Source: a virus
Lineage: Duplodnaviria; Heunggongvirae; Uroviricota; Caudoviricetes
DNA length: 40,666 nt
IMG/VR virus record: IMGVR_UViG_2563366836_000013
Location: 1-40,666 of that record
Reading direction: 5' to 3' (one strand)
This document shows, piece after piece, positions 6,651 through 39,382 of the stretch. The notes under the pieces were generated by a model that saw nothing but the letters and a program-made list of their open reading frames with translations, was not told the DNA's origin and searched no databases. The number at the start of each line of letters is the position of its first letter. Within the stretch, counting starts at the first letter, position 1. The position numbers were made by a program, and so were the translations under genes.

Positions 6651-6734
6651 TTGCTAACGAATCATCCTGGACTTCATATGCCCCAGGCGGCTACTTCGTG
6701 GGCGTCCTGCCTGTTCGTTATCTATGATATAAAA

Positions 6735-6805
6735 TCTAACTTAACTTAGTTATTATGGCAAGAGAAAACACCAAACTTTTCTTAGTTCGGTGCCTTAGTT
6801 AGAGA
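6735..6805. promoter_or_regulatory. Putative OL operator cluster (repeated CTTAGTT half-sites) / PL region
   Basis: Several copies of ACTTAGTT / CTTAGTT just beyond the 3' end of the repressor gene; same motif recurs in the cI-cro intergenic region. Confidence 0.4.
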
Positions 6806-6814
6806 AGAGAGGCC

Positions 6815-7441
6815 TTAGAGTTCGTATTGAACTCCTTTGACTACACCAATGATAAGGCAATTACCATTGATAGGGATGTTGGGATACCGAGGATTTAATG
6901 GCACTAAAAACTTTTGAGGGCCATCGATGACTAATTTTTTTACTGTAGCTTCGTTTGTTCCATCAAGTCGAGCGATGACTATTTTTCCATGACGAGGTTC
7001 TGCATCTGGATCTACAATCACTGTTGCGCCTTCTGGTATTGTTGGGAGGCCATTAGGGTTAGTCATGGAGTCACCTTTAACCTCTAATGCAAATGAGTTA
7101 TCACCAACCTTTAATGATGTATCTACCCACTTGTCCACTTCACTAAACACTTCTGCTGCCCTGCACTCAGTAAACTGCCCAGCCTGAACCCACGATATTA
7201 CAGGAACTCTGCGCATGTTTGTGACGAGTTTGCCTTCAAACTCAGCACCATAAAGAATGTAATCTATTGACGTATTGAAGAACTTCGCTAATTTCGAAAG
7301 TGCCTCCCCACCAGGGGTATTGATGTCTTTCTCCCAGTACCCCACAGCAACGTCGCTTACTCCACAAAATTTACCCAATTCTTTCTGGGACGTTCTGGTA
7401 ACTCTTCTCAGAGCTTTTATACGCTGACCAACCGTTTCCAT
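6815..7441 (-). CDS. CI-like repressor (XRE HTH N-terminus plus LexA/S24-type autocleavage domain)
   Basis: 208 aa; N-terminal HTH (QKELGKFCGVSDVAVGYWE), C-terminal S24 peptidase-like region (GDSM...K); divergent from the cro-like gene. Confidence 0.9.
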   Translation of the reverse strand: METVGQRIKALRRVTRTSQKELGKFCGVSDVAVGYWEKDINTPGGEALSKLAKFFNTSIDYILYGAEFEGKLVTNMRRVPVISWVQAGQFTECRAAEVFSEVDKWVDTSLKVGDNSFALEVKGDSMTNPNGLPTIPEGATVIVDPDAEPRHGKIVIARLDGTNEATVKKLVIDGPQKFLVPLNPRYPNIPINGNCLIIGVVKGVQYEL

Positions 7442-7538
7442 AGGAGCACCATTTCTTTAATTACTAAGTAATCTTAGTTTTTATTGACCAAAGATAGATT
7501 TGTAATTAGCATCTAACAAAACTTAGTTTGGAGGGCGT
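7442..7538. promoter_or_regulatory. OR / PR-PRM region between repressor and cro-like gene
   Basis: Palindromes ATTACTAAGTAAT and AAACTTAGTTT (CTTAGT half-sites), a TTGACC -35-like hexamer, and GGAGG RBS before the cro-like ATG. Confidence 0.5.
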
Positions 7539-7739
7539 ATGACAACTGACGATATCGAAAGCTACTTCGGCAGTATTGAGAAAGTTGCTGCTTTTTTCGG
7601 CATAACAACTGAAGCCGTTTATCAGTGGCGAAACCGTCCGGGCCAGTTAATTCCAAAAGGACGTGCAGCAGAAGCTGCATATAGAACTTGCGGACGGTTG
7701 CCATTTAAACCTGAGCTTTATGAAAAATCTAATGGATAA
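7539..7739 (+). CDS. Cro-like HTH regulator (YdaS-family)
   Basis: 66 aa, FFGITTEAVYQWRNRPGQLIP resembles YdaS/Cro-type HTH; first gene rightward of the repressor; GGAGG RBS. Confidence 0.75.
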   Translation: MTTDDIESYFGSIEKVAAFFGITTEAVYQWRNRPGQLIPKGRAAEAAYRTCGRLPFKPELYEKSNG

Positions 7740-8334
7740 ATCGATTAACAGAAACCACAGAACGATGAGGCTAACCGTGGGTAAGCATCACTGGAAAGTA
7801 GAAAAACAGCCTGAGTGGTACGTGAAAGCTGTCAGAAAAACTATCGCAAAGTTGCCGGGTGGTTACGCTGAAGCAGCTGACTGGCTGGATGTAACAGAGA
7901 ACGCATTATTTAACCGCCTTCGTGCCGATGGCGATCAGATTTTCCCGCTGGGATGGGCAATGATTTTGCAACGTGCTGGTGGCACTCACTTCATTGCTGA
8001 TGCTGTGGCGCAGTCTGCAAATGGCGTCTTTGTGTCGCTTCCTGACGTCGAGGATGTGGACAACGCCGATATTAACCAGCGTCTGCTGGAAGTCATTGAA
8101 CAGATCGGCAGTTATTCAAAACAGATTCGTTCAGCAATCGAAGACGGTGTAGTGGAACCGCATGAGAAGACAGCAATTAACGACGAGCTGTATCTCTCAA
8201 TTTCGAAGCTGCAGGAGCATGCAGCACTGGTCTACAAAATCTTTTGCATTTCAGAAAGTAATGACGCCCGCGAGTGTGCAGCTCCGGGCGTCGTGGCGTC
8301 GATTGCTTCTGGTTGTGGAGAAACTAACGCATGA
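7720..8334 (+). CDS. CII-like regulatory protein (YdaT / Phage_CP76-like)
   Basis: Position immediately after cro; start set at ATG 7720 ([10 protein letters not shown]...), overlapping cro end; start uncertain. Confidence 0.45.
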
Positions 8335-8669
8335 ACAGTTTAACAACACACTACCGTCGCTCGCAACTGATTGCGCTTCCTGTACCGGGTGGAAAAGCGA
8401 AGGTGGAATATTGCTATGCAGTGAATGTACCAGGTGACAGGGAAATTGTAACCCACAGCTTTGCAGAGTGGGCTGTGGGGGATTTCAACCGGCAGAAGGA
8501 GACAGTCCTTTGCGACAAGTTAACCGCTGGTTCAAAGATCACTACGGAGTGCCCGTCAGAGTCATTCGTTGGGAACCGGAAACACAACGGGTTATCTACC
8601 TCCGCGAAGGCTATGAGCATGAGTGCTTCAGTCCGCTCGAACAGTTTCGTCGTAAATTCAGGGAAATAG
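8331..8669 (+). CDS. Hypothetical protein (start coupled ATGA with upstream gene); C-terminal half looks non-protein-like
   Basis: ATG overlaps the upstream stop; N-terminal 55 aa plausible, remainder S-rich low complexity; overlaps the next ORF in another frame. Confidence 0.3.
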
Positions 8670-8689
8670 AGGTCGGTCATGAGCACTAA
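8468..8689 (+). CDS. DUF4222-like small protein (possibly the C-terminal part of a frameshifted gene)
   Basis: ...[45 protein letters not shown] is protein-like and recalled as DUF4222-like; frame is open from 8438; GTG start only. Confidence 0.35.
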
Positions 8690-9620
8690 ATTAACCGGCT
8701 ATGTATGGGATGGTTGCGCAGCGTCAGGCATGAAATTATCCAGCGTGGCAATTATGGCCCGCCTGGCTGATTTCAGTAATGACGAAGGTGTGTGCTGGCC
8801 ATCGATTGAAACCATTGCCCGCCAGATTGGCGCGGGGATGAGTACCGTCAGAACGGCTATCGCACGGCTGGAAGCAGAAGGCTGGTTAACGCGTAAGGCG
8901 CGTCGCCAGGGTAACCGCAATGCGTCGAATGTTTATCAGCTTAACGTTGCGAAGCTTCAGGCAGCGGCATTTTCTCAACTGTCAGATTCTGACCCGTCAA
9001 AATCTGACGCATCAAAATCTGACCCGTCAAAATTTGATGCGTCGAAATCTGGCAAAAAAGCGGGTTTTCACCCGTCAGAATCTGGCGGGGATCCGTCAGT
9101 AAAATCAAAACATGATCCGTCAGATAAAAAACCTTCTCGTCCGGACGCTTCGCAACCGGACACGCAGACGGCTGAACAGGATTTTTTAACTCGCCATCCT
9201 GATGCGGTTGTATTCAGCCCTAAAAAGCGCCAGTGGGGAACGCAGGATGATTTGACCTGCGCACAGTGGCTCTGGAAAAAAATCATCGCCCTGTACGAGC
9301 AGGCCGCCGAATGTGACGGCGAGGTGGTTCGTCCCAAAGAACCGAACTGGACAGCCTGGGCAAACGAAATTCGCCTGATGTGTGTGCAGGATGGTCGTAA
9401 TCATAAACAAATCTGCGAGATGTACAGCCGCGTCAGTCGCGATCCGTTCTGGTGCCGTAACGTGCTCAGCCCGTCGAAGCTGCGGGAAAAATGGGATGAG
9501 CTTTCCCTGCGCTTATCGCCGTCCGTCAGCACGTACACCGAAAAACGCGAAGACCCGTACTTCAAATCCAGTTACGACAACGTGGACTACAGCCAGATCC
9601 CGGCAGGATTCAGGGGGTGA
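8679..9620 (+). CDS. Replication initiator (lambda O-like N-terminal HTH, DnaT-like C-terminus) with embedded iterons
   Basis: 313 aa; N-terminal HTH (WPSIETIARQIGAGMSTVRTAIARLEAEGWL); central SDPSKSDASKSDPSKFDASKS repeats encoded by DNA iterons; GAGG RBS. Confidence 0.8.
   Translation: MSTKLTGYVWDGCAASGMKLSSVAIMARLADFSNDEGVCWPSIETIARQIGAGMSTVRTAIARLEAEGWLTRKARRQGNRNASNVYQLNVAKLQAAAFSQLSDSDPSKSDASKSDPSKFDASKSGKKAGFHPSESGGDPSVKSKHDPSDKKPSRPDASQPDTQTAEQDFLTRHPDAVVFSPKKRQWGTQDDLTCAQWLWKKIIALYEQAAECDGEVVRPKEPNWTAWANEIRLMCVQDGRNHKQICEMYSRVSRDPFWCRNVLSPSKLREKWDELSLRLSPSVSTYTEKREDPYFKSSYDNVDYSQIPAGFRG
8981..9131. repeat. Iteron array (probable phage replication origin) inside the initiator gene
   Basis: About 6 direct repeats of CCGTCA(A/G)AATCTGA-like units (tgacccgtcaaaatctgacgcatcaaaatctgacccgtcaaaatttgatgcgtcgaaatctgg ... 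atccgtcagataaaaaacc). Confidence 0.65.
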
Positions 9621-9622
9621 TC

Positions 9623-10111
9623 ATGAGTCTGTTAAATGACGTTCAGAAATTCATTGAAGCCCATCCTGGGTGTACTTCCGGAGACATTGCGGATGCTTTT
9701 GCAGGTTACTCACGGCAGCGCGTTCTGCAGTCTGCAAGCAAGTTACGTCAGAGTGGGCGTGTGGCTCACCGTTGTGAAGGAGATACACGCAGACATTTCC
9801 CGCGCCTGACTGAGAGAGCGCAGGAGCCGGAACCACAACCAGTTCGTGAAACCAGACCTGTGCGCAATTTCTATGTCGGCACTAACGATCCCCGGGTGAT
9901 TTTGTGCCTGACCCGCCAGGCTGAAGAACTGGAGTCAAGGGGCTTATACCGTCGTGCTGCAACCGTGTGGATGGCGGCATTCCGTGAAAGCCACTCCCAG
10001 CCAGAACGAAACAATTTTCTGGCGCGTCGTGAGCGGTGTTTACGGAAAAGCAGCAAGCGCGCTGTATCGGGTGAAGAGTGGTATCTGTCAGGGAATTACG
10101 TGGGGGCTTAA
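9623..10111 (+). CDS. Putative DNA-binding regulator (PerC/ANR-like C-terminal motif)
   Basis: 162 aa from ATG with AGGGGG RBS; motif ...LESRGLYRRAATVWMAAF recalls PerC/ANR family; assignment tentative. Confidence 0.4.
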   Translation: MSLLNDVQKFIEAHPGCTSGDIADAFAGYSRQRVLQSASKLRQSGRVAHRCEGDTRRHFPRLTERAQEPEPQPVRETRPVRNFYVGTNDPRVILCLTRQAEELESRGLYRRAATVWMAAFRESHSQPERNNFLARRERCLRKSSKRAVSGEEWYLSGNYVGA

Positions 10112-10764
10112 TGAGTAATAAATATTGCCAGGCGCTGGTGGAACTGCGGAACAAACCAGCCCATGAACTGAAGGAAGTGGGCGATCAGTGGCGCACGCCG
10201 GACAACATTTTCTGGGGAATTAACACCCTGTTTGGTCCGTTTGTTCTGGATCTGTTCACTGACGGTGATAACGCCAAATGTGCCGCGTATTACACGGCGG
10301 AAGACAACGCGCTGGCGCATGACTGGTCAGAACGTCTTGCGGAGCTTAAAGGTGCTGCCTTTGGTAATCCCCCATACAGCCGCGCCAGTCAGCATGAGGG
10401 GCAATACATCACCGGCATGCGTTACATCATGAAACATGCCAGTGCCATGCGTGATAAGGGCGGGCGCTATGTTTTCCTGATCAAAGCTGCCACCAGCGAA
10501 GTTTGGTGGCCGGAAGATGCAGACCATATTGCTTTTATTCGCGGGCGTATTGGTTTTGAACTGCCTGCCTGGTTTATCCCGAAGGATGAGAAGCAGGTGC
10601 CGACAGGAGCGTTCTTCGCTGGTGCTATTGCTGTTTTCGACAAGACCTGGAAGGGACCGGCAATCAGCTACATCGGGCGCGATGAACTTGAGGCATGTGG
10701 TGAGGCGTTTCTGGCGCAGGTTCGCCAGCAGGCGGAAAAACTGGTCAGGGAGATGGCGGCATGA
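10111..10764 (+). CDS. Phage N6-adenine DNA methyltransferase (orphan, Dam-like family)
   Basis: Catalytic motif FGNPPYS (NPPY), about 217 aa; TAATG overlap with upstream gene; no adjacent restriction enzyme. Confidence 0.8.
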   Translation: MSNKYCQALVELRNKPAHELKEVGDQWRTPDNIFWGINTLFGPFVLDLFTDGDNAKCAAYYTAEDNALAHDWSERLAELKGAAFGNPPYSRASQHEGQYITGMRYIMKHASAMRDKGGRYVFLIKAATSEVWWPEDADHIAFIRGRIGFELPAWFIPKDEKQVPTGAFFAGAIAVFDKTWKGPAISYIGRDELEACGEAFLAQVRQQAEKLVREMAA

Positions 10765-11087
10765 CGACGTTAACTCAATGCCAGCAGCAGGTGCTGGATA
10801 TGCTGATTTCTTATCAGAAAGAACGTGGCTTTCCGCCAACCAATCAGGAGGTGGCAACCATGCTGGGATACCGTTCGGTGAATGCAGCGGTGGAGCATCT
10901 TCGCGCACTGGAGAAAAAAGGCGTCATCACGATAAAGCGTGGCGTGGCCCGGGGTATCACGCTTCATACCACAGTGAAGGACGACGACAGCGAGGCAGCC
11001 GGGATTATCCGCGCACTGCTTGCCGGTGAGGAAAACGCCAGACTGCGTGCAGCCCACTGGTTACATGAGAGGGGCCTGAAAGTATGA
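10761..11087 (+). CDS. LexA-N-terminal-like winged-helix DNA-binding protein
   Basis: LTQCQQQVLDMLISYQKERGFPPTNQEVATMLGYRSVNAAVEHLRALEKKGVI resembles the LexA DNA-binding domain; no peptidase domain. Confidence 0.55.
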   Translation: MTTLTQCQQQVLDMLISYQKERGFPPTNQEVATMLGYRSVNAAVEHLRALEKKGVITIKRGVARGITLHTTVKDDDSEAAGIIRALLAGEENARLRAAHWLHERGLKV

Positions 11088-11473
11088 AGCTGATCCTGCC
11101 TTTCCCGCCCAGCGTGAACACGTACTGGCGACACCCCAACAAAGGGGCGTTTGCAGGTAAGAGCCTGATAAGCGCGGCGGGGCGAAAATTTCAGAGCGCG
11201 GCGTGCGCAGCAATAGTTGAACAGTTACGTCGTCTGCCGAAACCAACGTCGGCACCTGCTTCAGTGGAGATCGTGTTGTTTCCTCCGGATAACAGGATCC
11301 GCGATCTGGACAACTATAACAAGGCGCTGTTTGACGTTCTGACCCACGCGGGTGTGTGGGAAGACGACAGTCAGGTGAAAAGAATGCTGGTGGAGTGGGG
11401 ACCGGTTATCCCGGAAGGGAAGGTCGAGATCACTATCAGTAAGTACGAGAAAACGGCGGGTGCAGCCGCCTGA
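11084..11473 (+). CDS. rusA: RusA Holliday-junction resolvase
   Basis: 129 aa, MKLILPFPPSVNTYWRH ... RDLDNYNKALFDVL typical of RusA. Confidence 0.85.
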   Translation: MKLILPFPPSVNTYWRHPNKGAFAGKSLISAAGRKFQSAACAAIVEQLRRLPKPTSAPASVEIVLFPPDNRIRDLDNYNKALFDVLTHAGVWEDDSQVKRMLVEWGPVIPEGKVEITISKYEKTAGAAA

Positions 11474-11492
11474 GCAAGAGGAGAAACGAAGT

Positions 11493-12302
11493 ATGAATAA
11501 TCTGATGGTCATTGATGGTATTGAAGTTCGTCGTGATGCTTATGGGCGTTACAGCCTGAACGATCTGCACAGGGCAGCCGGGGGAGAACAAAAAAACCGC
11601 CCGAAATACTGGCTCTCCAATAAGCAAACCTGTGAATTGATTGAACAACTTTTCACCGAGGGTGGAATTCCGCCTCTGGAACAAAATCAACCAGTTAGCG
11701 TCATTAATGGCGGAAATAACCAGGGGACGTATGTCTGCAAAGAACTGGTGTATGCCTATGCAATGTGGATCAGCCCGTCATTCCATCTGAAGGTGATCCG
11801 TACTTTCGATATGGTAACCAGCGCATCGGAAAAATTATCCGGGCAGGCTGCTGACAAGATGCAGGCTGGAGTGATTCTGCTGGACTTTATGCGCAGGGAG
11901 TTAAACCTGTCTAACTCTTCAGTGCTTGGTGCCTGTCAGAAACTCCAGGAGGCTGTTGGCTTACCGAATCTGGCACCGCGCTATGCCATTGATGCTCCTG
12001 CTGATGCACACGATGGCTCAAGTCGCCCGACACTGTCACTGAGTGCACTGCTGAAACAGTATGGTATCCGCCTGACGGCTAATCAGGCATATCACCAGAT
12101 GGTGAAATTGGGGATCGTCGAGCAGCGCGAACGATACAGCCGTACCGCGATTAACAACATCAAAAAATTCTGGTCGCTGACAGCGAAAGGTTGCATGTTC
12201 GGCAAGAACATCACCAGTCCCGCAAATCCGCGCGAGACGCAGCCGCATTTCTTCGAATCCCGATTCCCTGAGCTGTTAAAGCTGCTCGATACCGTTCATT
12301 GA
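11493..12302 (+). CDS. KilA-N domain protein (antirepressor-like)
   Basis: Start at ATG with AGGAG upstream (MNNLMVIDGIEV...); N-terminal KilA-N-like domain, C-terminal region resembling antirepressor KilAC. Confidence 0.65.
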   Translation: MNNLMVIDGIEVRRDAYGRYSLNDLHRAAGGEQKNRPKYWLSNKQTCELIEQLFTEGGIPPLEQNQPVSVINGGNNQGTYVCKELVYAYAMWISPSFHLKVIRTFDMVTSASEKLSGQAADKMQAGVILLDFMRRELNLSNSSVLGACQKLQEAVGLPNLAPRYAIDAPADAHDGSSRPTLSLSALLKQYGIRLTANQAYHQMVKLGIVEQRERYSRTAINNIKKFWSLTAKGCMFGKNITSPANPRETQPHFFESRFPELLKLLDTVH

Positions 12303-12303
12303 G

Positions 12304-13305
12304 GTGACCGTGAGAGCACTACTGACCCCTGAAATTGCCCCGCGTATGGGGATCGTATTGTTCAGGCCAGGTTCAGAGCTGATGCCCCTGTTTATGCAGG
12401 GGCGTGTCCTGCTGGAGCCTGAGCCGGAGCGTTATTCATCTTTCGCCAGTGGTGCCGTTCCGGCGGCATCACAACCGCTGGCGGATGATCCTGCCGTTCG
12501 GGCCGTGTTCCGCAATGAGGCAGTGATCCGTCGTGCTGGTGGCGTGGAATGTCTTGAAAGCTGGTTACTTCGTGAAAAAGGCTGCCAGTGGCCTCATTCC
12601 GACTGGCACAGCGAGAACATGACCACAATGCGGCACGCGCCGGGCGCAATCCGTCTGTGCTGGCACTGCGATAACCAGTTGCGCGATCAGTTCACGGAAC
12701 GGCTGGAATCAATGGCAACGGATAACTGTGCCCGCTGGGTGTTATCTGTTGTGCGCCGTGATCTCGGTTTTGATGATAGTCACGTTGTGACAATGCCGGA
12801 ACTGTGCTGGTGGCTGGTTCGTAATGACCTGGCGGATGCCTTACCGGAAAGTGCAGCCCGTAAGGCACTGAGATTACCGAAGCCTGTTGTGCCGTCTGTT
12901 ACCCGGGAAAGTGACCTTGTGCCTTCGGTTCCTGCCACCAGCATCATCCAGGATAAAGCGAAAAAGGTGCTGGCGCTGAAAGTGGATCCGGAGTCGCCGG
13001 AGTCTTTTATGTTACGCCCAAAACGTCGCCGCTGGGTTAATGAAAAGTACACGCGCTGGGTTAAGACACAGCCGTGTGCATGTTGTGGAAAGCCTGCTGA
13101 TGATCCCCACCACCTGATAGGTCACGGTCAGGGTGGAATGGGAACAAAAGCGCATGACCTCTTTGTGTTGCCTTTGTGCAGAAAGCATCACGACGAGCTG
13201 CATGCGGATACCGTGGCATTTGAAGAGATGTATGGCTCCCAGCTGGAGCTGATATTTCGTTTTATCGATCGTGCGCTGGCGATCGGCGTAATTGCGACAG
13301 CTTAA
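12304..13305 (+). CDS. DUF968 / HNH-like nuclease domain protein (YdfU-like)
   Basis: C-terminal CACCGKPADDPHHL...CRKHHDELH HNH-type motif; GTG start (alternative GTG at 12310). Confidence 0.6.
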   Translation: MTVRALLTPEIAPRMGIVLFRPGSELMPLFMQGRVLLEPEPERYSSFASGAVPAASQPLADDPAVRAVFRNEAVIRRAGGVECLESWLLREKGCQWPHSDWHSENMTTMRHAPGAIRLCWHCDNQLRDQFTERLESMATDNCARWVLSVVRRDLGFDDSHVVTMPELCWWLVRNDLADALPESAARKALRLPKPVVPSVTRESDLVPSVPATSIIQDKAKKVLALKVDPESPESFMLRPKRRRWVNEKYTRWVKTQPCACCGKPADDPHHLIGHGQGGMGTKAHDLFVLPLCRKHHDELHADTVAFEEMYGSQLELIFRFIDRALAIGVIATA

Positions 13306-13326
13306 GTGTATGGAGCGCTGAGAAGT

Positions 13327-14016
13327 ATGAATCAACAAGACTTGAATTTTGTCAGAATAGAACTACGTCGTGCGCTGTTTGACTTCTCTGGGGGGACAAA
13401 AGGGCAGCTTGAGGCTTTCACTGAACACCCACCAGCAGACAAAAATGCCACTCCACGCCGTGGAATTCATCTTGTCGAACTCGAAGGTGATAAGGGACCA
13501 CGCTTTGTTAACTCGCTTTCCGCGCCATTGTACGTGCAAGAAACACGTAGCCGCCCCAGGCCAATGCCGCCGATAAAAGATGTAGAATTTGAGTCCGCGC
13601 CGTGGCGTAGGGCAGTGTCCGCGCTTAGTGGATACCAGCAGGCTTGGTTGCGGTACTGTTACGGTTTTGACCTTAACTATACGCACCAGGTGATGATGTG
13701 TGAATACGTCTGGAAGGCTTATCAGAAATGCTTGGGTGAAAACTCACTTCAGGAGCGCGTAGTAAAAAAACTAATAGGCCTAGTATGGCTTGCAGGACAG
13801 GAAATTGCTGCAACCCGAAACAATGAAACCTATAAAGACTACGCTGGTGCGGCGCTGGCCCGTATGGTTAGCGTTGACCGTTCGACATGGTTGCGCGTCT
13901 ATTCAGGCCACTGGGCTGGGTTAAAGGCCGCTTTTACCCAGCTTGATGAGTCTGCGCTGGCCATGGCTCTTGAATACTATGAGGATGAAGAAGCTCTCAA
14001 AGTGGGAGAAATATGA
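13327..14016 (+). CDS. Late-gene antiterminator Q (phage 82/21 type)
   Basis: About 229 aa from ATG (MNQQDL...); last early gene before a promoter-plus-terminator unit and the lysis genes. Confidence 0.7.
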   Translation: MNQQDLNFVRIELRRALFDFSGGTKGQLEAFTEHPPADKNATPRRGIHLVELEGDKGPRFVNSLSAPLYVQETRSRPRPMPPIKDVEFESAPWRRAVSALSGYQQAWLRYCYGFDLNYTHQVMMCEYVWKAYQKCLGENSLQERVVKKLIGLVWLAGQEIAATRNNETYKDYAGAALARMVSVDRSTWLRVYSGHWAGLKAAFTQLDESALAMALEYYEDEEALKVGEI

Positions 14017-14046
14017 CGTAAATTTCACTATCTCCTTCAAACGCGC

Positions 14047-14075
14047 TTGCAAAATACAACAAAATAAGCCATATT
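14047..14075 (+). promoter_or_regulatory. Candidate late promoter PR' (TTGCAA-17 bp-CATATT)
   Basis: Hexamers with 17-bp spacing just downstream of Q stop, followed about 35 nt later by a terminator, as for lambda PR'-tR'. Confidence 0.35.
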
Positions 14076-14109
14076 GGAAGCATATTTGATATGTTGCCAA
14101 AGTTTTATA

Positions 14110-14134
14110 AACCCGCCGACGAGCGGGTTTTTTG
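14110..14134 (+). terminator. tR'-like rho-independent terminator
   Basis: CCCGC-CGACGA-GCGGG hairpin followed by TTTTTT. Confidence 0.6.
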
Positions 14135-14209
14135 ATATGCGACATAACCTATAACATTTTTTATAAAATAAAATATAATTGCTTTACCATTATCCTGTGA
14201 GTTGAGCAA

Positions 14210-14995
14210 ATGTATATATTTGAATTGACCAAACCTGGCAACTGGCTTGAAAGTGAAGACAAAGAGTGGTCTTGGAAAATAGAACGGCTTTTGGACCATC
14301 TTGAATTTGCATTTTATGAGGCTAATGTTGCATTAAATTTATTTATGCAGCAGCAAAACAATCAAATAGAACAACAAGGGGTTTCGCAATTGCAATGGGA
14401 AAAAGAAATGCAAGAACGAAGAACCATCGAAACACTAGTTCGTGAGGAGTTAGGTTTATCCCCTTTTGAGAATCCTGAAAACATACAATTTGAGGTGGAC
14501 GCGAGGTTTAAACGAGAAAAGTGGAGTTCTGGTGAAATTCCACGTAGCCACAAACATTGTGTGATTTTTATTTATGCAAAATCTTTTCTTTATTCTCTTG
14601 ATACTATTGATAAATTTATAAAGGTTATTTCGAATGAACCTTATGCTCCTGAGTCGATAAAAGCCCTACACGATCAGATAGGTAAAGATTTTCCTGATCT
14701 CAGAGGGGTTAGGAATTCAACTCAACACCTCGAAGATAGGGCTCGAGGGCTTGGCGCAGGGAGAGAACCGAAGCCTTTGAATCTCCAGCCTATAAGTAAT
14801 ACCTTCATAAATGCACCGCAAGGTGCTTTGATATTAAATAATCTGAATGGCACCAAATTCGGGTCAACTATATCTGATGGTCACTATGGTGAAGTGGACA
14901 TTTCACCTGAATCGTTATCAAAAATGCAAAGTATTGTTCAGGGCGTTCTTGACTCGTTTAAGTGGGTTGGTAATCAGCAACACTTACCAAGTTAA
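14210..14995 (+). CDS. AT-rich moron protein with HEPN-like R-N-x3-H motif (candidate Abi/defence RNase)
   Basis: 261 aa; low GC compared with flanks; RNSTQH at residues 168-173 fits the HEPN Rx4-6H signature; own TATAAT -10 (14174-14179) and downstream hairpin terminator. Confidence 0.5.
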   Translation: MYIFELTKPGNWLESEDKEWSWKIERLLDHLEFAFYEANVALNLFMQQQNNQIEQQGVSQLQWEKEMQERRTIETLVREELGLSPFENPENIQFEVDARFKREKWSSGEIPRSHKHCVIFIYAKSFLYSLDTIDKFIKVISNEPYAPESIKALHDQIGKDFPDLRGVRNSTQHLEDRARGLGAGREPKPLNLQPISNTFINAPQGALILNNLNGTKFGSTISDGHYGEVDISPESLSKMQSIVQGVLDSFKWVGNQQHLPS

Positions 14996-15017
14996 CTAAA
15001 CTTAATTATTCATATTA

Positions 15018-15041
15018 AGGCTGCCATATGGCGGCCTTTTT
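15018..15041 (+). terminator. Hairpin terminator after the AT-rich moron
   Basis: AGGCTGCC-ATAT-GGCGGCCT stem (one mismatch) followed by TTTT. Confidence 0.4.
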
Positions 15042-15088
15042 ATTCCCTTCACTTTTGAGAGGATTCACAGCAATTAAGAGGGGGCTAA

Positions 15089-15475
15089 ATGTCCGATCCG
15101 ATTTCCGGCACAGGGTTAGCTGCTGGAGTCCTGACAGGCGCTAGTGTTTATGGACTGCTGACCGGAACTGATTACGGTGTTGTATTTGGCGCATTTGCAG
15201 GGGCTGTATTCTACATCGCAACAGCAGCAGATCTGAGTTTATCGCGTCGACTGGCATATTTTATCGTGTCGTATATTGCCGGAATCCTTTGCTCTGGGTT
15301 GGTTGGCTCCAAGCTGGCAAACTTGACCGGATACAGTGATAAACCTCTGGATGCTATTGGTGCCGTAATCGTCTCTGCTTTAGCCGTTAAAATCCTGACG
15401 TTTCTGAATAACCAGGATATCGGTTCGCTGGTGGCGCTTATAACGCGCCGGGGAGGTTCAGGTGGAGCTAAATGA
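15089..15475 (+). CDS. Putative holin (multi-TM membrane protein)
   Basis: 128 aa, Gly/Ala-rich hydrophobic helices, strong AGAGGGGG RBS, first gene of the lysis cassette upstream of endolysin. Confidence 0.5.
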   Translation: MSDPISGTGLAAGVLTGASVYGLLTGTDYGVVFGAFAGAVFYIATAADLSLSRRLAYFIVSYIAGILCSGLVGSKLANLTGYSDKPLDAIGAVIVSALAVKILTFLNNQDIGSLVALITRRGGSGGAK

Positions 15476-15743
15476 CCCGACAGCAACTATAAATGCGCTG
15501 TTATGTGCTTGTGTTGTTATTACTCTGATGTTTTATCGTCGTGGTGATTCGCGGCATCGTCCTTGGGTTTCACGTTTAGCCTGGCTGATTACTGTTACAT
15601 ACAGTGCTGTTCCGTTGGCCTATCTCTGTGGGATTTATCCCCATTCCTCATGGCCCATTATCGTGGCGAATACTATTTTTCTTTCCGTGCTGGTGGCCGT
15701 CAGAGGCAACGTTGCACGTCTGGTTGATCATCTGAGGCACTAA
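15462..15743 (+). CDS. Second holin-like membrane protein
   Basis: 93 aa from GTG with GGGAGG RBS; hydrophobic TM segments; between holin and endolysin. Confidence 0.45.
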   Translation: MELNDPTATINALLCACVVITLMFYRRGDSRHRPWVSRLAWLITVTYSAVPLAYLCGIYPHSSWPIIVANTIFLSVLVAVRGNVARLVDHLRH

Positions 15744-16357
15744 TGAACCAACAATTATTTCAAAAGGCGGCTGGTATTAGCGCCGGGCTGGCTGCGCGCT
15801 GGTTTCCGCACATTGATGCGGCGATGAAGGAATTCGGCATTACAGCACCAGCGGATCAGGCAATGTTTATCGCTCAGGTAGGCCATGAGTCGATGGGGTT
15901 TAGCGCCGTAGTTGAAAATTTTAACTACACACCATCTGCGCTGGTGGCGTCGTTCGGAAAGAGGATTACACAGCAGCAGGCTGATGCCCTTGGCAGAACA
16001 TCCGGACATGCAGCTCGTCAGGATGCTATTGCCAATCTTGTGTATAGCAACCGACTGGGTAACAAAGCACCAGGTGATGGCTGGAAATATCGTGGTAGAG
16101 GATTAATTCAAATCACTGGCCTCCATAATTATCGCATCTGTGGCGCGGCGCTGAAGTTAGATCTGGTGACTTCACCTGAACAACTGGAACAGGAGCTACA
16201 GGCCGCGCGCTCAGCTGCATGGTTCTACACCTCTAAAGGTTGCATGGTCTACGGTACCGATATTAATCGTGTTACGCGCATCATTAACGGCGGTCTGAAC
16301 GGTATTGAGGATCGTAAGGTTCGATACAACAAGGCGCGGGCGGCGCTGCTGGTATGA
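15743..16357 (+). CDS. Endolysin, glycoside hydrolase family 19 (chitinase-like lysozyme)
   Basis: 204 aa; ...FIAQVGHESMGFS...NRLGN...GWKYRGRGLIQITGLHNY... typical of GH19 phage endolysins. Confidence 0.85.
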   Translation: MNQQLFQKAAGISAGLAARWFPHIDAAMKEFGITAPADQAMFIAQVGHESMGFSAVVENFNYTPSALVASFGKRITQQQADALGRTSGHAARQDAIANLVYSNRLGNKAPGDGWKYRGRGLIQITGLHNYRICGAALKLDLVTSPEQLEQELQAARSAAWFYTSKGCMVYGTDINRVTRIINGGLNGIEDRKVRYNKARAALLV

Positions 16358-16746
16358 AGATGAGTTATTGGGCGCTCATTTTAACGTTTATTGCTTGTAT
16401 TGCTGGTGGTCTTGTTTGGTCAGCGAATCACTATCATGGAAAGTTTCTGGAGGAGCAGAAGCGTGCTGACGCTGCGGAACAGCGAGCTGATTCTACTGAG
16501 GCTATCACCGCGAATGTTCTGCGTACTATGGCAATAACGAACATCATTCAGGAGGCGAATCAATATGCAAAACAGCAGATCGCACTGGAGTCACAGAGAA
16601 CCCAGGAAGATATCAAAGTGGCTGTTGCGGATGATGATTGTGCTTCACATCCTGTGCCTGCTGCCGCTGCTGACCGGTTGCGGAAGTACGCGAACAGTTT
16701 ACGTGAGCATTCCGAAGACTCCACTACCAGTCAGCTTGACTTCTGA
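16354..16746 (+). CDS. i-spanin (Rz-like)
   Basis: 130 aa, N-terminal TM (YWALILTFIACIAGGLVW) then coiled-coil periplasmic domain; ATGA overlap with endolysin stop. Confidence 0.8.
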   Translation: MKMSYWALILTFIACIAGGLVWSANHYHGKFLEEQKRADAAEQRADSTEAITANVLRTMAITNIIQEANQYAKQQIALESQRTQEDIKVAVADDDCASHPVPAAAADRLRKYANSLREHSEDSTTSQLDF

Positions 16747-16879
16747 TACACCTGTACCGTGTATACCCAACCCACTGACGTATGGTGCAAGTCTTGATTT
16801 GAATGTAAGTTTGTTATCCGCGTTGGCTCAATGTAATAGGGATAAGTCTGATATCAGAATCATTGATAATCAAAATTGA
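16631..16879 (+). CDS. o-spanin (Rz1-like lipoprotein) in +1 frame overlapping the Rz 3' end
   Basis: MMIVLHILCLLPLLTGCGS lipobox, Pro-rich mature part; starts inside Rz and extends past its stop. Confidence 0.7.
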   Translation: MMIVLHILCLLPLLTGCGSTRTVYVSIPKTPLPVSLTSDTPVPCIPNPLTYGASLDLNVSLLSALAQCNRDKSDIRIIDNQN

Positions 16880-17082
16880 TGTATATTTTTATCGTCATGT
16901 AGATAACGAACAAGGTATTCCTCTGATACGTTTCGTTGAATACAGGTCATGGGTAGGCATTGCAATATCGCTTCGAAATTATCTGTGATAATGCTCTTAA
17001 TTTTGAATGTATGTATTTGGGAAAAGAGATAAAGTAATAGTCTAATTAATGGAGATATCCACAAAACACAAAAGGGACTATT

Positions 17083-17589
17083 ATGCGACCAGATCAATTT
17101 TTCTATCCAGATACTTTTACCTTTAATTCATCCACCTATTATGGTCAACGTGACTCATCTAAAGGTCGATTGTATATTCCTATTGAAAGTGACTTATGTC
17201 CATTTAATATCGGCGATATCATTGTGCAAAAAATGGTCGACAGGGAAAGACTATTTGAAGTGCTTGATTACGAGGTGCAAATTAGTCTCGAGGCTGGTTG
17301 CCCTGGCTACTCACATTTGGCGGTATTGATAGTGAAGGCATTGGATGTAAAAGAGAAGCCGAAGCAGATTACGACCCATTTGACGTTTAACGGTGCTATT
17401 AATGCTGGTGGTGATTTTCAAGCCGGTAATGACAATTCGATCACAAAGAATATAACCATTCAACAACTACATGATGCTATAGAGCATTGCAATGATCCAG
17501 AGGTTAAAAGCCTTTGGCAAAAGCTATTGGAAAATCCGACGTTTGCTTCAATTGCTTCAATATTGGCAAAAAGTGCTTTAGGACAGTAA
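17083..17589 (+). CDS. AT-rich orphan moron protein (168 aa), unknown function
   Basis: Low-GC ORF with AAGGGA RBS, upstream extended -10-like TGtGATAAT and downstream terminator; sits between spanins and HNH/terminase. Confidence 0.55.
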   Translation: MRPDQFFYPDTFTFNSSTYYGQRDSSKGRLYIPIESDLCPFNIGDIIVQKMVDRERLFEVLDYEVQISLEAGCPGYSHLAVLIVKALDVKEKPKQITTHLTFNGAINAGGDFQAGNDNSITKNITIQQLHDAIEHCNDPEVKSLWQKLLENPTFASIASILAKSALGQ

Positions 17590-17597
17590 TTCATCAA

Positions 17598-17621
17598 GCC
17601 CCATTCAATATGGGGTTTTTA
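17598..17621 (+). terminator. Rho-independent terminator after the second moron
   Basis: GCCCCA-TTCAATA-TGGGG hairpin followed by TTTTT. Confidence 0.55.
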
Positions 17622-17646
17622 TGCTTATTACAAAGAGTTTTCTTCA

Positions 17647-17997
17647 ATGCCACCACGAACTCCAAAAGCCTGCCGTGTTCGCGGGTGCCGCCGTACCACC
17701 ACTGACCCGTCAGGTTATTGCGAAAGCCACAAAAGCGAAGGCTGGAAGCAATACAAGCCAGGACAATCCCGTCATCAGCGCGGCTACGGTTCGAAGTGGG
17801 ACGTTATCCGCGCGCGTGTGCTGAAACGTGACAAAGGTTTATGTCAGTTATGTCTGCGCGCTGGTGTGGTGCGTGAGGCGAAAACTGTTGACCACATCAT
17901 CCCTAAAGCGCATGGCGGCACTGATGCCGACTGTAATCTGCAGAGTCTGTGCTGGCCGTGTCATAAGGCGAAGACGGCCCGTGAACGGCTTAAGTGA
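17647..17997 (+). CDS. HNH endonuclease (terminase-associated, HK97-like packaging module)
   Basis: 116 aa with C..C ... H-N-H zinc-finger core (CQLCLRAGVVREAKTVDHIIPKAHGGTDADCNLQSLCWPCHKAKT). Confidence 0.85.
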   Translation: MPPRTPKACRVRGCRRTTTDPSGYCESHKSEGWKQYKPGQSRHQRGYGSKWDVIRARVLKRDKGLCQLCLRAGVVREAKTVDHIIPKAHGGTDADCNLQSLCWPCHKAKTARERLK

Positions 17998-18023
17998 TAA
18001 TAATTCTCAACTGTCTGAGGGGA

Positions 18024-18084
18024 GGGGCGGGTCAAATCTCTGCGGCCTGACGTCTTCCGGACTGCCCGCCCCATCGTTTTTTTA
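18024..18084. other. Inverted repeat GGGGCGGG / CCCGCCCC plus T7 run: candidate cos region or large-loop terminator
   Basis: 8-bp perfect inverted repeat separated by about 33 nt, followed by TTTTTTT; located between HNH and small terminase where HK97-like cos sites lie. Confidence 0.3.
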
Positions 18085-18122
18085 TACCCGCGAAAAATGA
18101 AATTTAACCAGGAGTGCCGCAT

Positions 18123-18617
18123 ATGGCTGGAACGGCGGGGCGTTCCGGGCGTCGCCCCAAGCCAACGGCGCGCAAGGCGCTGGCCGGAAACCCCGGCAAG
18201 CGAGCCCTGAATAAAGATGAACCTGTTTTTACGCCCATCAAAGGTGTTGAGCCACCGGAGTGGTTCGCTGAAGAAGATCTCCCTCTCGCTACGATCATGT
18301 GGCAACTGACAACTAAAGAACTCTGCGGTCAGGGCCTGCTGTGCGTGACTGACCTTGCGGTGCTTGAGCGGTGGTGCGTGGCCTACGAGTTCTGGCGACG
18401 TGCCGTGAAAAATATTGCCAGACAGGGCAACACCATCACCGGTGCAATGGGCGGTATGGTCAAAAATCCGGAGCTGACTGCCAAAAAAGAACAGGAGTCC
18501 GAGATGAGCAGTACGGGGGCAATGCTCGGACTCGACCCCAGCAGCCGCCAGCGTCTGATTGGCCTGGCGGGGAAGAAGAAAGCCACTAACCCGTTTCTGA
18601 AAATCATCGAATCATGA
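18123..18617 (+). CDS. Terminase small subunit (P27 family)
   Basis: [34 protein letters not shown] matches the P27-family TerS N-terminus; AGGAG RBS; ATGA overlap with TerL. Confidence 0.8.
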
Positions 18618-20347
18618 GCCGGAAATCTTACCCCAACGTAAATGCTGCAAATCAGTATGCCCGGGATGTCGTCCGCGGAAAGATTGTTGCCTGCCAGTTT
18701 GTGATTCAGGCCTGCCAGCGCCATCTTGATGACCTGATGGCGGAAAAAAGTAAGTCGTTTCGTTACCGCTTCGACAAGGACCTGGCTGAACGGGCCGCGA
18801 AATTTATTCAGCTGTTGCCGCACACCAAGGGGGAGTGGGCATTCAAACGGATGCCCATCACGCTGGAGCCGTGGCAGCTATTTGTGATCTGCTGTGCGTT
18901 TGGCTGGGTCAATAAAGGCACCCGGTTGCGCCGCTTCCGGGAGGTGTACACCGAAATCCCCCGTAAGAACGGCAAATCAGCAATCTCTGCCGGTGTTGCC
19001 CTGTATTGTTTTGCCTGTGATAACGAGTTTGGCGCGGAAGTGTATTCCGGTGCCACGACAGAGAAACAGGCGTGGGAAGTCTTTCGCCCGGCGCGACTGA
19101 TGTGTAAACGCACACCCATGCTGACGGAAGCGTTCGGGATTGAGGTTAACGCCTCAAACATGAACCGTCCGGAGGATGGCGCGCGGTTTGAACCGCTGAT
19201 CGGCAACCCAGGTGATGGTTCATCACCCCACTGTGCCGTGGTTGATGAATATCACGAGCATGCCACCGATGCGCTTTATACCACAATGCTTACCGGGATG
19301 GGGGCGCGACGTCAGCCACTGATGTGGGCCATCACCACCGCCGGGTACAACATTGAGGGGCCGTGCTACGACAAGCGGCGGGAAGTCATCGAGATGCTCA
19401 ACGGCTCGGTGCCTAACGATGAACTGTTCGGGATCATCTATACCGTTGATGAAGGTGACGACTGGACCGACCCGCAGGTGCTGGAAAAAGCCAATCCAAA
19501 TATTGGCGTGTCGGTTTATCGCGAATTTTTGTTAAGTCAGCAGCAGCGTGCGAAAAATAACGCCCGTCTGGCAAACGTCTTTAAAACAAAACACCTCAAT
19601 ATCTGGGTGTCGGCGCGTTCGGCGTATTTCAACCTGGTGAGCTGGCAGAGCTGCGAGGATAAATCACTGACTCTTGAGCAGTTCGAGGGGCAGCCGTGCA
19701 TTCTGGCCTTTGACCTGGCGCGTAAGCTGGATATGAACAGCATGGCGCGACTTTATACCCGCGAGATTGACGGTAAAACGCATTACTACAGTGTGGCCCC
19801 GCGTTTCTGGGTACCGTATGACACGGTGTACAGCGTCGAGAAAAATGAAGATCGCCGGACAGCCGAACGCTTTCAGAAATGGGTGGAAATGGGCGTTCTG
19901 ACCGTTACCGATGGTGCAGAGGTGGATTATCGCTACATCCTCGAAGAGGCCAAAGCGGCGAACAAAATCAGCCCGGTCAGTGAGTCACCCATCGACCCTT
20001 TCGGAGCGACCGGGCTGTCACATGACCTTGCTGATGAAGACCTGAATCCCGTTACTATCGTCCAGAACTTCGCCAATATGTCCGACCCGATGAAAGAGCT
20101 GGAGGCAGCGATTGAATCGGGACGCTTTCATCATGACGGCAATCCCATCATGACCTGGTGTATCGGCAATGTGGTCGGCAAAAACATGCCAGGTAACGAT
20201 GATTTAGTGAAGCCCGTCAAAGAGCAGGCGGAAAACAAAATCGATGGTGCAGTTGCGCTGATTATGGCGGTTGGCAGAGCCATGCTGTACGAGAAAGAAG
20301 ACACGCTGTCTGACCACATTGAGTCCTATGGGATCCGCTCGCTTTAA
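18614..20347 (+). CDS. Terminase large subunit
   Basis: 577 aa; ATPase and nuclease regions (VDEYHEH Walker-B-like); position between TerS and portal. Confidence 0.93.
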
Positions 20348-20358
20348 CTGAGGTAATT

Positions 20359-20541
20359 ATGATCATGCTGATTCTCGCGCCTCTGGTGGGCGTGCTGGGG
20401 GCGCTTTTGCTGGCGTATGGTGCCTGGCTGATTTATCCCCCGGCGGGGTTTGTTGTTGCCGGGGCGTTGTGTCTGTTCTGGTCGTGGCTGGTGGCGCGAT
20501 ATCTCGACCGTACACAGTCGTCTGTCGGCGGAGGTAAATAG
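20359..20541 (+). CDS. Small membrane protein (60 aa), unknown
   Basis: GAGG RBS, two hydrophobic helices, stop overlaps portal GTG start (TAGTG). Confidence 0.4.
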
Positions 20542-21782
20542 TGTTCTTTTCGGGATTATTTCAACGAAAAAGTGACGCACCGGTGACCACGCCAGCAGAG
20601 CTGGCGGATGTTATCGGGTTGTCCTACGACACCTATACCGGAAAGCAGATCAGCAGCCAGCGGGCCATGCGACTGACGGCGGTTTTTTCCTGTGTCAGGG
20701 TGCTGGCGGAGTCGGTCGGGATGTTGCCCTGCAACCTGTATCACCTGAACGGCAGTCTGAAGCAGAGAGCCGCTGGCGAACGTCTGCATAAGCTGATCTC
20801 CACGCATCCCAATGGCTATATGACGCCGCAGGAGTTCTGGGAGCTGGTGGTCACCTGTCTGTGCCTGCGGGGAAACTTTTACGCCTACAAAGTGAAAGCA
20901 TTTGGCGAAGTGGCTGAACTGCTGCCCGTCGATCCCGGCTGTGTGGTACCGAAGCTTAACAGTAGCTGGGAGCCGGTCTATCAGGTCACATTCCCGGATG
21001 GCTCCACGGATGTACTGAGCCAGGAGGATATCTGGCATGTGCGCACGCTGACGCTGGACGGACTGGTGGGGCTGAATCCCATCGCCTATGCCCGCGAGGC
21101 AATATCGCTGGCGGCAGCGACCGAAGAGCACGGGGCCAGACTGTTTAGCAATGGCGCGGTGACGTCGGGTGTGTTGCGTACAGAGCAGACGCTGTCAGAT
21201 CAGGCTTATGAGCGCCTGAAGAAAGATTTTGAGGAGCGTCACACCGGGCTTGGCAATGCTCACCGCCCGATGATCCTTGAGATGGGGCTGGACTGGAAGT
21301 CGATGGCGCTGAACGCCGAGGACAGCCAGTTCCTGGAAACCCGCAAGTTTCAGCTTGAAGAAATCTGTCGTCTGTTCCGGGTGCCGTTGCACATGGTGCA
21401 GAACACCGATCGCGCCACCTTCAACAATATCGAAGAGCTGGGGCTGGGATTTATCAACTATTCACTGGTGCCGTATCTGACCCGCATCGAACAGCGGATC
21501 AACACCGGACTGGTACGAAAAAGTAAGCAGGGCGTTTATTACGCCAAATTTAACGCCGGGGCGTTACTGCGCGGGGATATGAAGTCCCGTTTTGAAGCCT
21601 ACGCCACCGGGATCAACTGGGGAATTTACTCTCCCAATGACTGCCGCGACCTGGAAGATATGAATCCACGACCCGGTGGTGATGTCTATCTCACACCGAT
21701 GAACATGACCACGAAACCCTCCGATGGCAGTAAAGCCGGTAAGCAGAAGGATAACGCCAATGCAGACGAAACAACGTCTTGA
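20541..21782 (+). CDS. Portal protein (HK97 family)
   Basis: 413 aa, GTG start with GGAGG RBS; portal-like sequence and position after TerL. Confidence 0.9.
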   Translation: MFFSGLFQRKSDAPVTTPAELADVIGLSYDTYTGKQISSQRAMRLTAVFSCVRVLAESVGMLPCNLYHLNGSLKQRAAGERLHKLISTHPNGYMTPQEFWELVVTCLCLRGNFYAYKVKAFGEVAELLPVDPGCVVPKLNSSWEPVYQVTFPDGSTDVLSQEDIWHVRTLTLDGLVGLNPIAYAREAISLAAATEEHGARLFSNGAVTSGVLRTEQTLSDQAYERLKKDFEERHTGLGNAHRPMILEMGLDWKSMALNAEDSQFLETRKFQLEEICRLFRVPLHMVQNTDRATFNNIEELGLGFINYSLVPYLTRIEQRINTGLVRKSKQGVYYAKFNAGALLRGDMKSRFEAYATGINWGIYSPNDCRDLEDMNPRPGGDVYLTPMNMTTKPSDGSKAGKQKDNANADETTS

Positions 21783-38468: not shown

Positions 38469-39382
38469 TTTTTACCCTTAAGTACATACTTTGGACGCTG
38501 CTTAACTTCAATGTAAATTCTACCAATATACTCACCGAGCACTCCAATCCCAATTAACTGGATGCCGCCAAGAAATAATATTGATACAAGAATTGAAGGG
38601 TATCCAGGTACATTATTACCAAAAATTAATTTATCAATTATCATCCATGAACCGTATGTAAATGATATACATGCAATAAATAACCCAATATAGGTCCACA
38701 TGCGAAGCGGGAATGTTGAGAAGCTAGTGATCCCTTCCAGCGCCAAGTTCCATAGCTTCCATCCATTGAACTTTGTGCTTCCTGCAACGCGTTCTGCTCG
38801 CGCATATTCTACGACATCGGTTCGACCACCAACCCAGCTCAGCACACCCTTCATAAACAGGTTTCGTTCTGGCATGAGCTTAATGTTTTCTACTACTTCG
38901 CGAGACATGAGCCGGAAGTCGCCAACATTCTCTTCTATCTGAGGGTTGCTGATTTTGTTATGAAGTTTATAGAACCACTCAGCAGATTTACGCTTCAGCC
39001 TGCTGTCAGTGGAGCGGTCAGAGCGTTTAGCCAGAACCATATCTGCACCGGCCTGCCATTTCTCTATCAAGTGAGGAATAACTTCGATAGGGTCTTGCAG
39101 ATCAACGTCAATCGGGATAATTGCCTCCCCGGTAGCATGGTCCAGACCTGCGAACAGGGCGGGTTCTTTGCCGAAGTTACGTGTGAACGACAGCGAAACA
39201 ACAAGCGGGTCGGCAACAGCAAGCTCGTTGATAATTGATTCTGTAGCGTCTTTGCTGCCATCGTTTATGAAGACTATCTCGACTTCATGCTGCTGAAGCC
39301 CTTCAAATTCGCGCACAGTTTTATAAAAAATAGGTATCGTGGCCTCTTCGTTAAAGACCGGAACGACTAAAGAAATTTTCAT
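38465..39382 (-). CDS. gtrB: GtrB bactoprenol glucosyltransferase (GT2 family)
   Basis: 305 aa, [13 protein letters not shown]...FINDGSKD...DVDLQDP GT2 motifs and C-terminal TM helices. Confidence 0.92.

Follow-up and report, generated by a model that had tools for sequence, protein, structure and literature searches.

A probable replication origin of lambda type within the initiator gene of an SfII/SfIV-type lambdoid prophage

We analyzed a 40,666-nt stretch of viral DNA, positions 1 to 40,666 of IMG/VR record IMGVR_UViG_2563366836_000013 (hereafter the window). It represents a lambdoid prophage of the type known from Shigella as SfII/SfIV and from E. coli as PhiR29. Our subject is its replication initiator gene and an array of short direct repeats, or iterons, that lies inside that gene. 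The initiator open reading frame (ORF) is preceded, 6 nt upstream, by a GAGG ribosome-binding site and shares 98-99% identity with the replication genes of E. coli PhiR29_1 and the Shigella phages SfII and SfIV, whose annotations vary ("replication protein O", "primosomal protein", "helix-turn-helix domain-containing protein"). The full-length protein falls in PHROG 391, "replication initiation O-like" (6e-135). Its gene is laid out as follows, in window coordinates; CDS denotes coding sequence, aa amino acids and pLDDT the predicted local distance difference test.

8679..9620, + strand: initiator gene, 313 aa, from the ORF list (end includes the stop codon)
8679..8978, + strand: CDS of the winged-helix DNA-binding domain at the N-terminus (aa 1-100), presumed to read the iterons (Pfam HTH_36; alignment with 11 relatives)
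8980..9054: iterons 1-5, abutting head to tail, TGTCAGATTCTGACC / CGTCAAAATCTGACG / CATCAAAATCTGACC / CGTCAAAATTTGATG / CGTCGAAATCTGGCA
9055..9072: 18-bp spacer, AAAAAGCGGGTTTTCACC, separating iteron 5 from iteron 6 and containing an A-tract and a T-tract
9073..9087: iteron 6, CGTCAGAATCTGGCG, isolated and the best conserved copy, a perfect match to the consensus
9090..9137: two 24-bp direct repeats (family D6), each GATCCGTCAG followed by an A-rich run; candidate DNA-unwinding region
9121..9157: conserved joint coding for KKPSRPDASQP, where the module of N-domain plus putative origin recombined onto various C-terminal modules
9192..9509, + strand: CDS of the C-terminal domain (aa 172-277), all-helical in the AlphaFold2 model and matched to lambda O by BLASTP (1e-26)
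9561..9617, + strand: CDS of the DnaT-like C-terminal tail (aa 295-313, ending ...FKSSYDNVDYSQIPAGFRG), predicted to be disordered, pLDDT below 50

The array consists of six 15-bp dyad-symmetric sites with the consensus CGTCARAATCTGRCG at 8980-9087, starting at 8980, 8995, 9010, 9025, 9040 and 9073. Tandem Repeats Finder reported 8988-9051, with a period of 15 (4.3 copies, 81% matches) or 30 (2.1 copies, 88%), as the only multi-copy array of its kind in the 40.7-kb window, and a repeat search returned families D1 and D2 at 15-nt spacing with another copy 33 nt on. Because each unit is itself a palindrome, the search also returned many inverted repeats among the units. When the window was scanned with CGTCARAATCTGRCG at up to 3 mismatches, there were 15 hits against an expected 3.84 ± 1.88, a number reached by none of 100 shuffles, and 10 of the 15 (counting both strands) were the six iteron sites. 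The symmetry is as unusual as the repetition: 31 of 42 paired positions in the six 15-mers are self-complementary, against ~10.7 expected from the window background of 1.78 of 7 per 15-mer, and among 100,000 randomly drawn sets of six 15-mers none reached 31.

All of the copies lie in frame and code for SDSDPSKSDASKSDPSKFDASKS...HPSESGGDPSVKSKHDPSD in a Ser/Asp/Pro/Lys-rich linker. The six sites correspond to aa 101-137, between HTH_36 (aa 23-70) and the lambda-O-like C-domain, and their core, TCARAWTCTGR, is confined to the initiator linker both here and in 13 homologues. An initial annotation of this DNA had described repeats of a CCGTCA(A/G)AATCTGA-type unit that are translated as a repetitive linker of the initiator, and this was borne out for the six 15-bp sites and for two copies of GATCCGTCAG; its unit is the iteron repeat in a slightly shifted register, and the CCGTCA copies that it followed up to 9131 are the exact GATCCGTCAG copies at 9090 and 9114. 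Two other matches in the array were set aside. The only Rfam hit, to mir-5880 on the palindromic repeats, scored 30.7 bits against a gathering score of 97 and was an artefact of repeat symmetry, and a terminator-like hairpin on the minus strand at 9061-9074 (CGGGTGAAAACCCG then CTTTTTTG), in the spacer between iterons 5 and 6, was dismissed as probably due to chance because it is unconserved among homologues.

Codon choice, symmetry, reading frame, family pattern and mosaic structure together led us to conclude that the repeats are constrained as DNA and not as protein. For codon choice we compared 12 homologues whose N-domains are 58-93% identical to that of the window and in which 44-65% of the conserved N-domain codons differ synonymously. 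Serine was encoded by TCA or TCT at 140 of 161 linker positions versus 112 of 328 elsewhere, and lysine by AAA at 61 of 62 versus 162 of 224. The charge-changing substitution of K by E (AAA to GAA) is present among the copies, while the silent codon AAG accounts for 1 of the 62 linker lysines. Across the 57 nt from iteron 6 to the second GATC repeat, synonymous differences numbered 14 of 132 (11%), versus 365 of 701 (52%) in the N-domain. In the Stx2a phage Stx2_KH16-043 (L006), one repeat copy sits in another reading frame. The repeats of two further relatives are spaced by 23/46/24 nt (L002) and 23/22/24 nt (L011), and with such spacings they cannot be peptide repeats.

The family pattern points the same way. 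All 22 distinct relatives that we examined (22/22) have between 3 and 7 symmetric direct repeats at the corresponding position of the gene, with a sequence that is specific to the N-domain clade, and the consensus differs among at least eight such clades, including the following.

24B O: GGGCAGGAGCTGCCC
ST64B, mEp460 and 2H10: GTGCAnnAnnTTCAC
RothC: TGCCATCTGATGGCA
Vibrio D75: GTGACAnnnTGTCAC
S107, S1249 and BUCT709: further types

The isolated copy, which is found in all members of the window's clade, changes in step with the tandem copies, to the CCTTCA type in L006 and the GTCCAG type in L007. At mosaic breakpoints the repeats travel with the N-domain, since phiNP matches only nt 2-479 of the initiator query (the N-domain and the repeats) and mEp460_4F5 only nt 443-942 (the C-domain part); the joint itself, as PSCP(D/V)ASQP, recurs in relatives that bear three different C-domains. 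Among 80 loci nearly identical to the window, the number of repeats varies in 15-bp steps, giving proteins of 308, 313, 318 and 323 aa with near-identical N-domains, a variation that both a DNA element and a peptide repeat would allow.

To the right of the array, the pair of GATC sites in the D6 repeats, 24 bp apart, is retained in 12 of 13 homologues. The segment 9098-9137 is the least stable 40 bp of the initiator gene, at 30% G+C, and by analogy with ori-lambda 9090-9137 may be the segment that unwinds. The A-rich run and TTTT(C/G)AC ahead of the isolated iteron are likewise kept by relatives, and the spacer (9055-9072) may have a role in DNA bending. At the position of the window's GATCCGTCAG pair, phages of the ST64B/24B/Vibrio clade have a different element: GAACCAGTCA, coding for RTSHSFEPVKEP, occurs two to three times in different reading frames just after the iterons (L009 2800-2850, L096, L008, L011, L013, L095 and L097-L100). 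It is kept from E. coli to Vibrio, Aggregatibacter and Stenotrophomonas phages, regardless of iteron type.

In the protein, Pfam HTH_36 (PF13730), a winged helix, matches aa 23-70 at 4e-11, with weaker N-domain matches to GntR, PaaX, MarR, DnaD_N and RP-C. Phage_rep_O (PF04492) gave no match in the window's N-domain, whereas lambda O matched it at 6e-36 in the same library. The C-domain aligns with that of lambda O (BLASTP, 1e-26) through the shared pattern WGTxxDLTxAxW...WANxIRLM...DGRNH...FW..NVLSPxKLRxKW, which marks it on sequence grounds as a true homologue. AlphaFold2 modelled aa 161-313 as a confident helical domain, with a pLDDT of 85-93 over the helices and the last 30 residues disordered, and a Foldseek search of the C-domain model against PDB found no fold relative. 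Protein searches with the N-domain profile returned nearly only short fragments. Among them were 138-aa proteins, encoded on many E. coli chromosomes, in which the first ~80% of the N-domain query (~80 residues) is fused to a fragment of RusA (P0191-P0202 and others); these look like deleted prophages with one deletion endpoint slightly upstream of the iteron array.

We consider it probable, at roughly three in four, that this lambdoid prophage of SfII/SfIV type has the array as its cis-acting replication origin, placed within the linker-coding part of its own initiator gene and working as set out here. Dimers of the N-terminal winged-helix domain would bind the six iterons; the symmetry of the sites, their position and their co-variation with the domain point to it as the reader. 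The resulting nucleoprotein complex would stress and open the adjacent A-rich GATC segment, as at ori-lambda. Since the phage has no P-type loader, DnaC-type loader, helicase or primase, host DnaB-DnaC would have to be brought by the initiator itself, through the lambda-O-type C-domain and most likely through the disordered tail, which copies that of host DnaT. Transcription from the pR-like early promoter would pass through the site, as in lambda. The initial annotation had likened the arrangement to lambda O/ori, and the linker position, the dyads, the synonymous conservation, the co-variation with the N-domain, the breakpoints and the C-domain homology lend that comparison support. The sequence evidence thus argues for an in-gene origin of lambda type that has an iteron specificity of its own.

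The annotation had also stated that no helicase loader gene follows the initiator. The next gene is indeed PerC-like, and we found no helicase, loader or primase gene between int and Q. Its further claim, of a DnaT-like C-terminus, held for the last 19-21 residues, the only part that aligned with DnaT in hhalign (E of 1.6e-5 and 3.4e-6, probability 79-88%), and failed for the globular C-domain. DnaT's three-helix single-stranded-DNA-binding domain (PF17948) had no Pfam match even at E = 10 among 19 family members, no DnaT chain was present among the PDB sequence matches (phmmer and profile) or Foldseek matches, and an alignment by eye of the C-domain helices with the three-helix bundle of DnaT did not hold up; we therefore rejected a DnaT-like globular domain, as Pfam, PDB sequence search, hhalign profile comparison and Foldseek were negative except for the tail. 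The last nine residues, SQIPAGFRG, are identical to the end of E. coli DnaT, SQIPPGFRG, at 8 of 9 positions (the DnaT sequence was checked against PDB 9zbt_D). In one relative (P0073), 19 of the last 30 residues are identical to DnaT (BLASTP, 2e-8). The tail, ...(S/P)xPDxxIPxGFRG, is nearly invariant among DnaT orthologues, Buchnera included.

We then compared tails and neighboring genes for 25 initiators of the family, whose lineages are not independent; the fragments from the N-domain profile search were not used here. None of the 13 initiators ending in GFR(G/S/T) was followed by a helicase or loader gene, versus 8 of the 12 tail-less ones (Fisher p = 5e-4), and the genes after these eight are lambda-P-like, DnaC/IstB-like, DnaB-like or primase-helicase. 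The tail is borne by three unrelated types of C-domain (lambda-O-type, Phg_2220_C and ST64B-type). Within the ST64B type, ST64B, mEp460 and 2H10 have the tail and no loader, whereas L006 is tail-less and has an IstB/DnaC-like AAA+ gene. That gene, which is unannotated, follows the L006 initiator directly (L006 3444-4331), and with a related N-domain and the same iteron core L006 is the natural counterpart of the window initiator as regards the role of the tail.

This distribution is consistent with recruitment of host primosome components through the tail. We also put forward, as a tentative idea that we think somewhat unlikely to be right, that the ~20-residue tail ...PDxxIPxGFRG shared by DnaT and "O-only" initiators (those without a partner helicase or loader gene) is a portable helicase-recruitment motif by which DnaT would hand a site to DnaB-DnaC, so that phages carrying it could dispense with a loader or helicase of their own. 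According to a 2026 preprimosome structure paper (PMC13377028), the step that recruits DnaB/DnaC remains unknown. Our literature search combining iterons, DnaT and phage returned nothing. One additional DnaT-like protein turned up: P0296, of 160 aa from Salmonella, has the DnaT C-terminal domain and tail behind an unrelated basic low-complexity N-terminus, and may be a mobile-element variant of DnaT.

Several observations weigh against this account. Four tail-less relatives (YeP2, L091, Vibrio D75 and Vibrio D65) likewise lack a helicase or loader gene in the 1.5-4 kb examined on their downstream side, and the tail is therefore not the sole route. In DopC, a DnaT-like C-terminus occurs alongside a P-like partner (PMC5509034). 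The published DnaT work that we examined assigns no function to the DnaT tail, and one DnaT paper favors the DnaT N-domain as the recruiter of DnaB/DnaC. At the DNA level, 9098-9137 is only moderately unstable, within the top 5% of window 40-mers, and the abutting 15-bp sites are packed more tightly than the 20-24 bp spacing of lambda and of the sister clades. The homologue comparisons are not phylogenetically independent. No origin mapping in this phage group turned up in the literature, and the SfIV genome paper names a replication module without mentioning an origin.

The repeats could in principle be a mere by-product of a low-complexity, flexible Ser/Asp/Pro/Lys linker that grows and shrinks by replication slippage and has no function as DNA. 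The window copies do all lie in frame and encode a plausible disordered linker, and the 15-bp steps in copy number are what slippage would give. However, codon choice is fixed across diverged homologues, the units are palindromic to an extent that selection on the protein would not explain, and relatives have copies out of frame and at spacings that are not multiples of three. Slippage in a peptide linker also fits poorly with a pattern that tolerates the radical change of K to E and nearly forbids the synonymous AAG, and with a repeat sequence that switches with the clade of the DNA-binding domain; we regard this explanation as very improbable. A less remote but still improbable reading grants that the initiator binds the repeats and makes them sites for autoregulation, copy control or exclusion of related phages (cf. 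plasmid handcuffing), with replication starting elsewhere. Plasmid iterons do perform such double duty in control, the A-rich flank is only moderately unstable, and stretches much richer in A+T are present at other places in the window, such as 6717-6756 and 14141-14180. Those stretches, however, are intergenic or lie in moron regions and have no repeats, and the window has no other repeat array of three or more copies. The strongest synonymous conservation spans iteron 6 and the A-rich GATC repeats together, as would be expected of a functional origin core, and in every characterized lambdoid system in-gene iterons are the origin.

A third possibility, about as improbable as a control site, is that replication is mainly recombination-dependent and that the initiator acts as a site-specific adaptor into the host PriA-PriB-DnaT restart pathway, not by direct DnaB-DnaC loading in lambda-like theta mode. 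Chi sites (GCTGGTGG) are strongly enriched: there are 18 in the window, at 3520-40488, versus 1.5 expected, none of 100 shuffles reached 18, and the strand bias is strong, with 14 on the + strand, mostly at 7975-20850. The early-left ORFs that we scanned yielded no gene of the Red, RecT or Erf type; together with the Chi enrichment, this agrees with the lambdoid class that Zheng et al. 2025 (PMC12315714) describe, with "no Rec module, high Chi". The related phage LLS has an O-only replication module, is rich in Chi and is aided by RecBCD (PMC12315714), and the tail is shared with DnaT, a restart protein. DnaT, however, contacts PriA and PriB through the core of its C-terminal domain and its linker, not through the tail. 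Entry into restart would still need the iterons as a binding site, which makes it a variant of the in-gene origin and not a replacement for it.

An origin inside the initiator gene is in keeping with known systems. Iterons inside the initiator gene are the accepted origin in lambda, P22 and phage L (PMC8022706) and in the Stx phages (PMC7466680). As in lambda, the window has direct dyad-symmetric repeats in the linker-coding middle of the initiator gene and a segment to their right that is A/T-rich, in the window moderately so; the site lies in the pR-like operon after cII, and the C-domains are homologous. Lambda differs in having four 18-bp iterons at 20-24 bp spacing, against five abutting 15-bp copies and one isolated copy in the window, whose N-domain is HTH_36 and not Phage_rep_O, which lacks a P gene, and whose DnaT-like tail is absent from lambda O. 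The right-hand palindrome of lambda, CGTCAGAGAATTCTGGCG, resembles iteron 6. More fully, the palindrome to the right of the lambda A/T-rich region at 39162-39184 (L101 663-685; CGTCAGAGAATTCTGGCGAATCC) is similar to window 9073-9094 (CGTCAGAATCTGGCGGGGATCC), and an A-rich run precedes both; the resemblance could be due to shared linker ancestry or to chance.

Gene 18 of P22, gene 18 of phage L and the initiators of Stx phages (933W, P27) likewise contain initiator-specific iterons that vary from phage to phage in sequence and number, four of ~20 bp in P22 and six of 11 bp in phage L (PMC8022706), and six in Stx phages (PMC7466680). Each of these, unlike the window phage, has a partner helicase (gene 12 of P22 and L) or loader (Stx P). 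The domesticated O/P-like pair DopC/DopE resembles the window initiator in joining an HTH_36 N-domain to a DnaT-like C-terminus (PMC5509034); for DopC the C-terminal domain of DnaT is reported, along with a P-like partner and a lack of iterons, whereas the window has the tail only, no partner, and iterons. Closest are the "O-only" modules: 34 of 314 lambdoid phages, including LLS, have an O-like gene only, and their replication "is not yet understood" (Zheng et al. 2025, PMC12315714). The window allele belongs to this class. Like mEp460_4F5 and like LLS, whose repressor genes are closest to those of mEp460_4F5 (PMC12315714), it has a lone O-like gene without helicase or loader, and like LLS it is rich in Chi. 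With mEp460_4F5 it shares the C-domain and tail at 97% nucleotide identity; mEp460_4F5 differs in its N-domain and in its iterons, CATYGGKTCAAAATG, which number four and are not all in one frame. The paper describing the class mentions neither iterons nor a DnaT-like tail (PMC12315714).

The iteron plasmids (pSC101 RepA, R6K pi, F RepE and RK2 TrfA) offer a further parallel, with a winged-helix initiator and tandem iterons beside an A/T-rich region. They rely on host DnaB-DnaC and have no loader of their own. In these plasmids the origin lies outside the rep gene and usually has DnaA boxes, whereas the putative origin of the window is in-gene, and a search of 8323-11491 for the DnaA box TTATNCACA at up to 1 mismatch gave no match.

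The allele of N-domain plus putative origin occurs in 2007 of the 5426 complete E. coli genomes (37%) and also in Shigella serotype-converting phages, and so probably marks where replication starts in one of the most frequent types of enterobacterial prophage. Iterons within the initiator gene are a textbook arrangement; the more interesting and more speculative part is how a helicase might be loaded without a loader, for which the DnaT-like tail is a specific candidate. The modular initiator, with its winged-helix domain, iterons, lambda-O-like domain and DnaT tail, suggests concrete constructs for the study of P-less DnaB loading in a lambdoid phage, and may also reveal the role of the conserved DnaT tail in replication restart. 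Segments 88-90% identical to the N-domain plus putative origin occur in two circular, phage-sized "plasmid" records, CP085522.1 (41.5 kb) and NZ_CP081716.1 (37.7 kb), which may be excised replicating phage genomes or phage-plasmids.

The genes around the initiator are in the order cI-like, Cro-like, CII-like and DUF4222 gene, then the initiator, with the following coordinates.

6815-7441, - strand: cI-like repressor gene
7484..7512, + strand: pR-like promoter match, 5' of the cro-like gene (consensus scan 9/12, no better than chance alone)
7539-7739: P22-Cro-like gene
7663-8334: CII (CP76)-like gene
9617-10111: PerC-like gene, directly after the initiator

Transcription from the pR-like promoter would, by analogy with lambda, cross the putative origin; the promoter and terminator scan as a whole returned nothing exceeding chance. 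Beyond the PerC-like gene lie genes for a Dam-type methylase, a protein with a LexA DNA-binding domain, RusA, a KilA-like protein, DUF968/HNH and Q. At the left end, a host pectinesterase-like gene (229-1512, - strand) adjoins the lambda-type integrase gene (1647-2717, - strand), which places the left prophage-host junction inside the window. Just 5' of the initiator, two + strand ORFs, 8331-8669 and 8468-8689, overlap by ~200 nt in different frames, and both have family support: the 112-aa ORF belongs to PHROG 1170 (6e-70) and the 73-aa ORF to Pfam DUF4222 (3e-19). One of these two families may be made up of wrong-frame gene calls; alternatively, the 112-aa ORF, the first of the two, may arise by read-through from a 63-aa gene (PHROG 20047).

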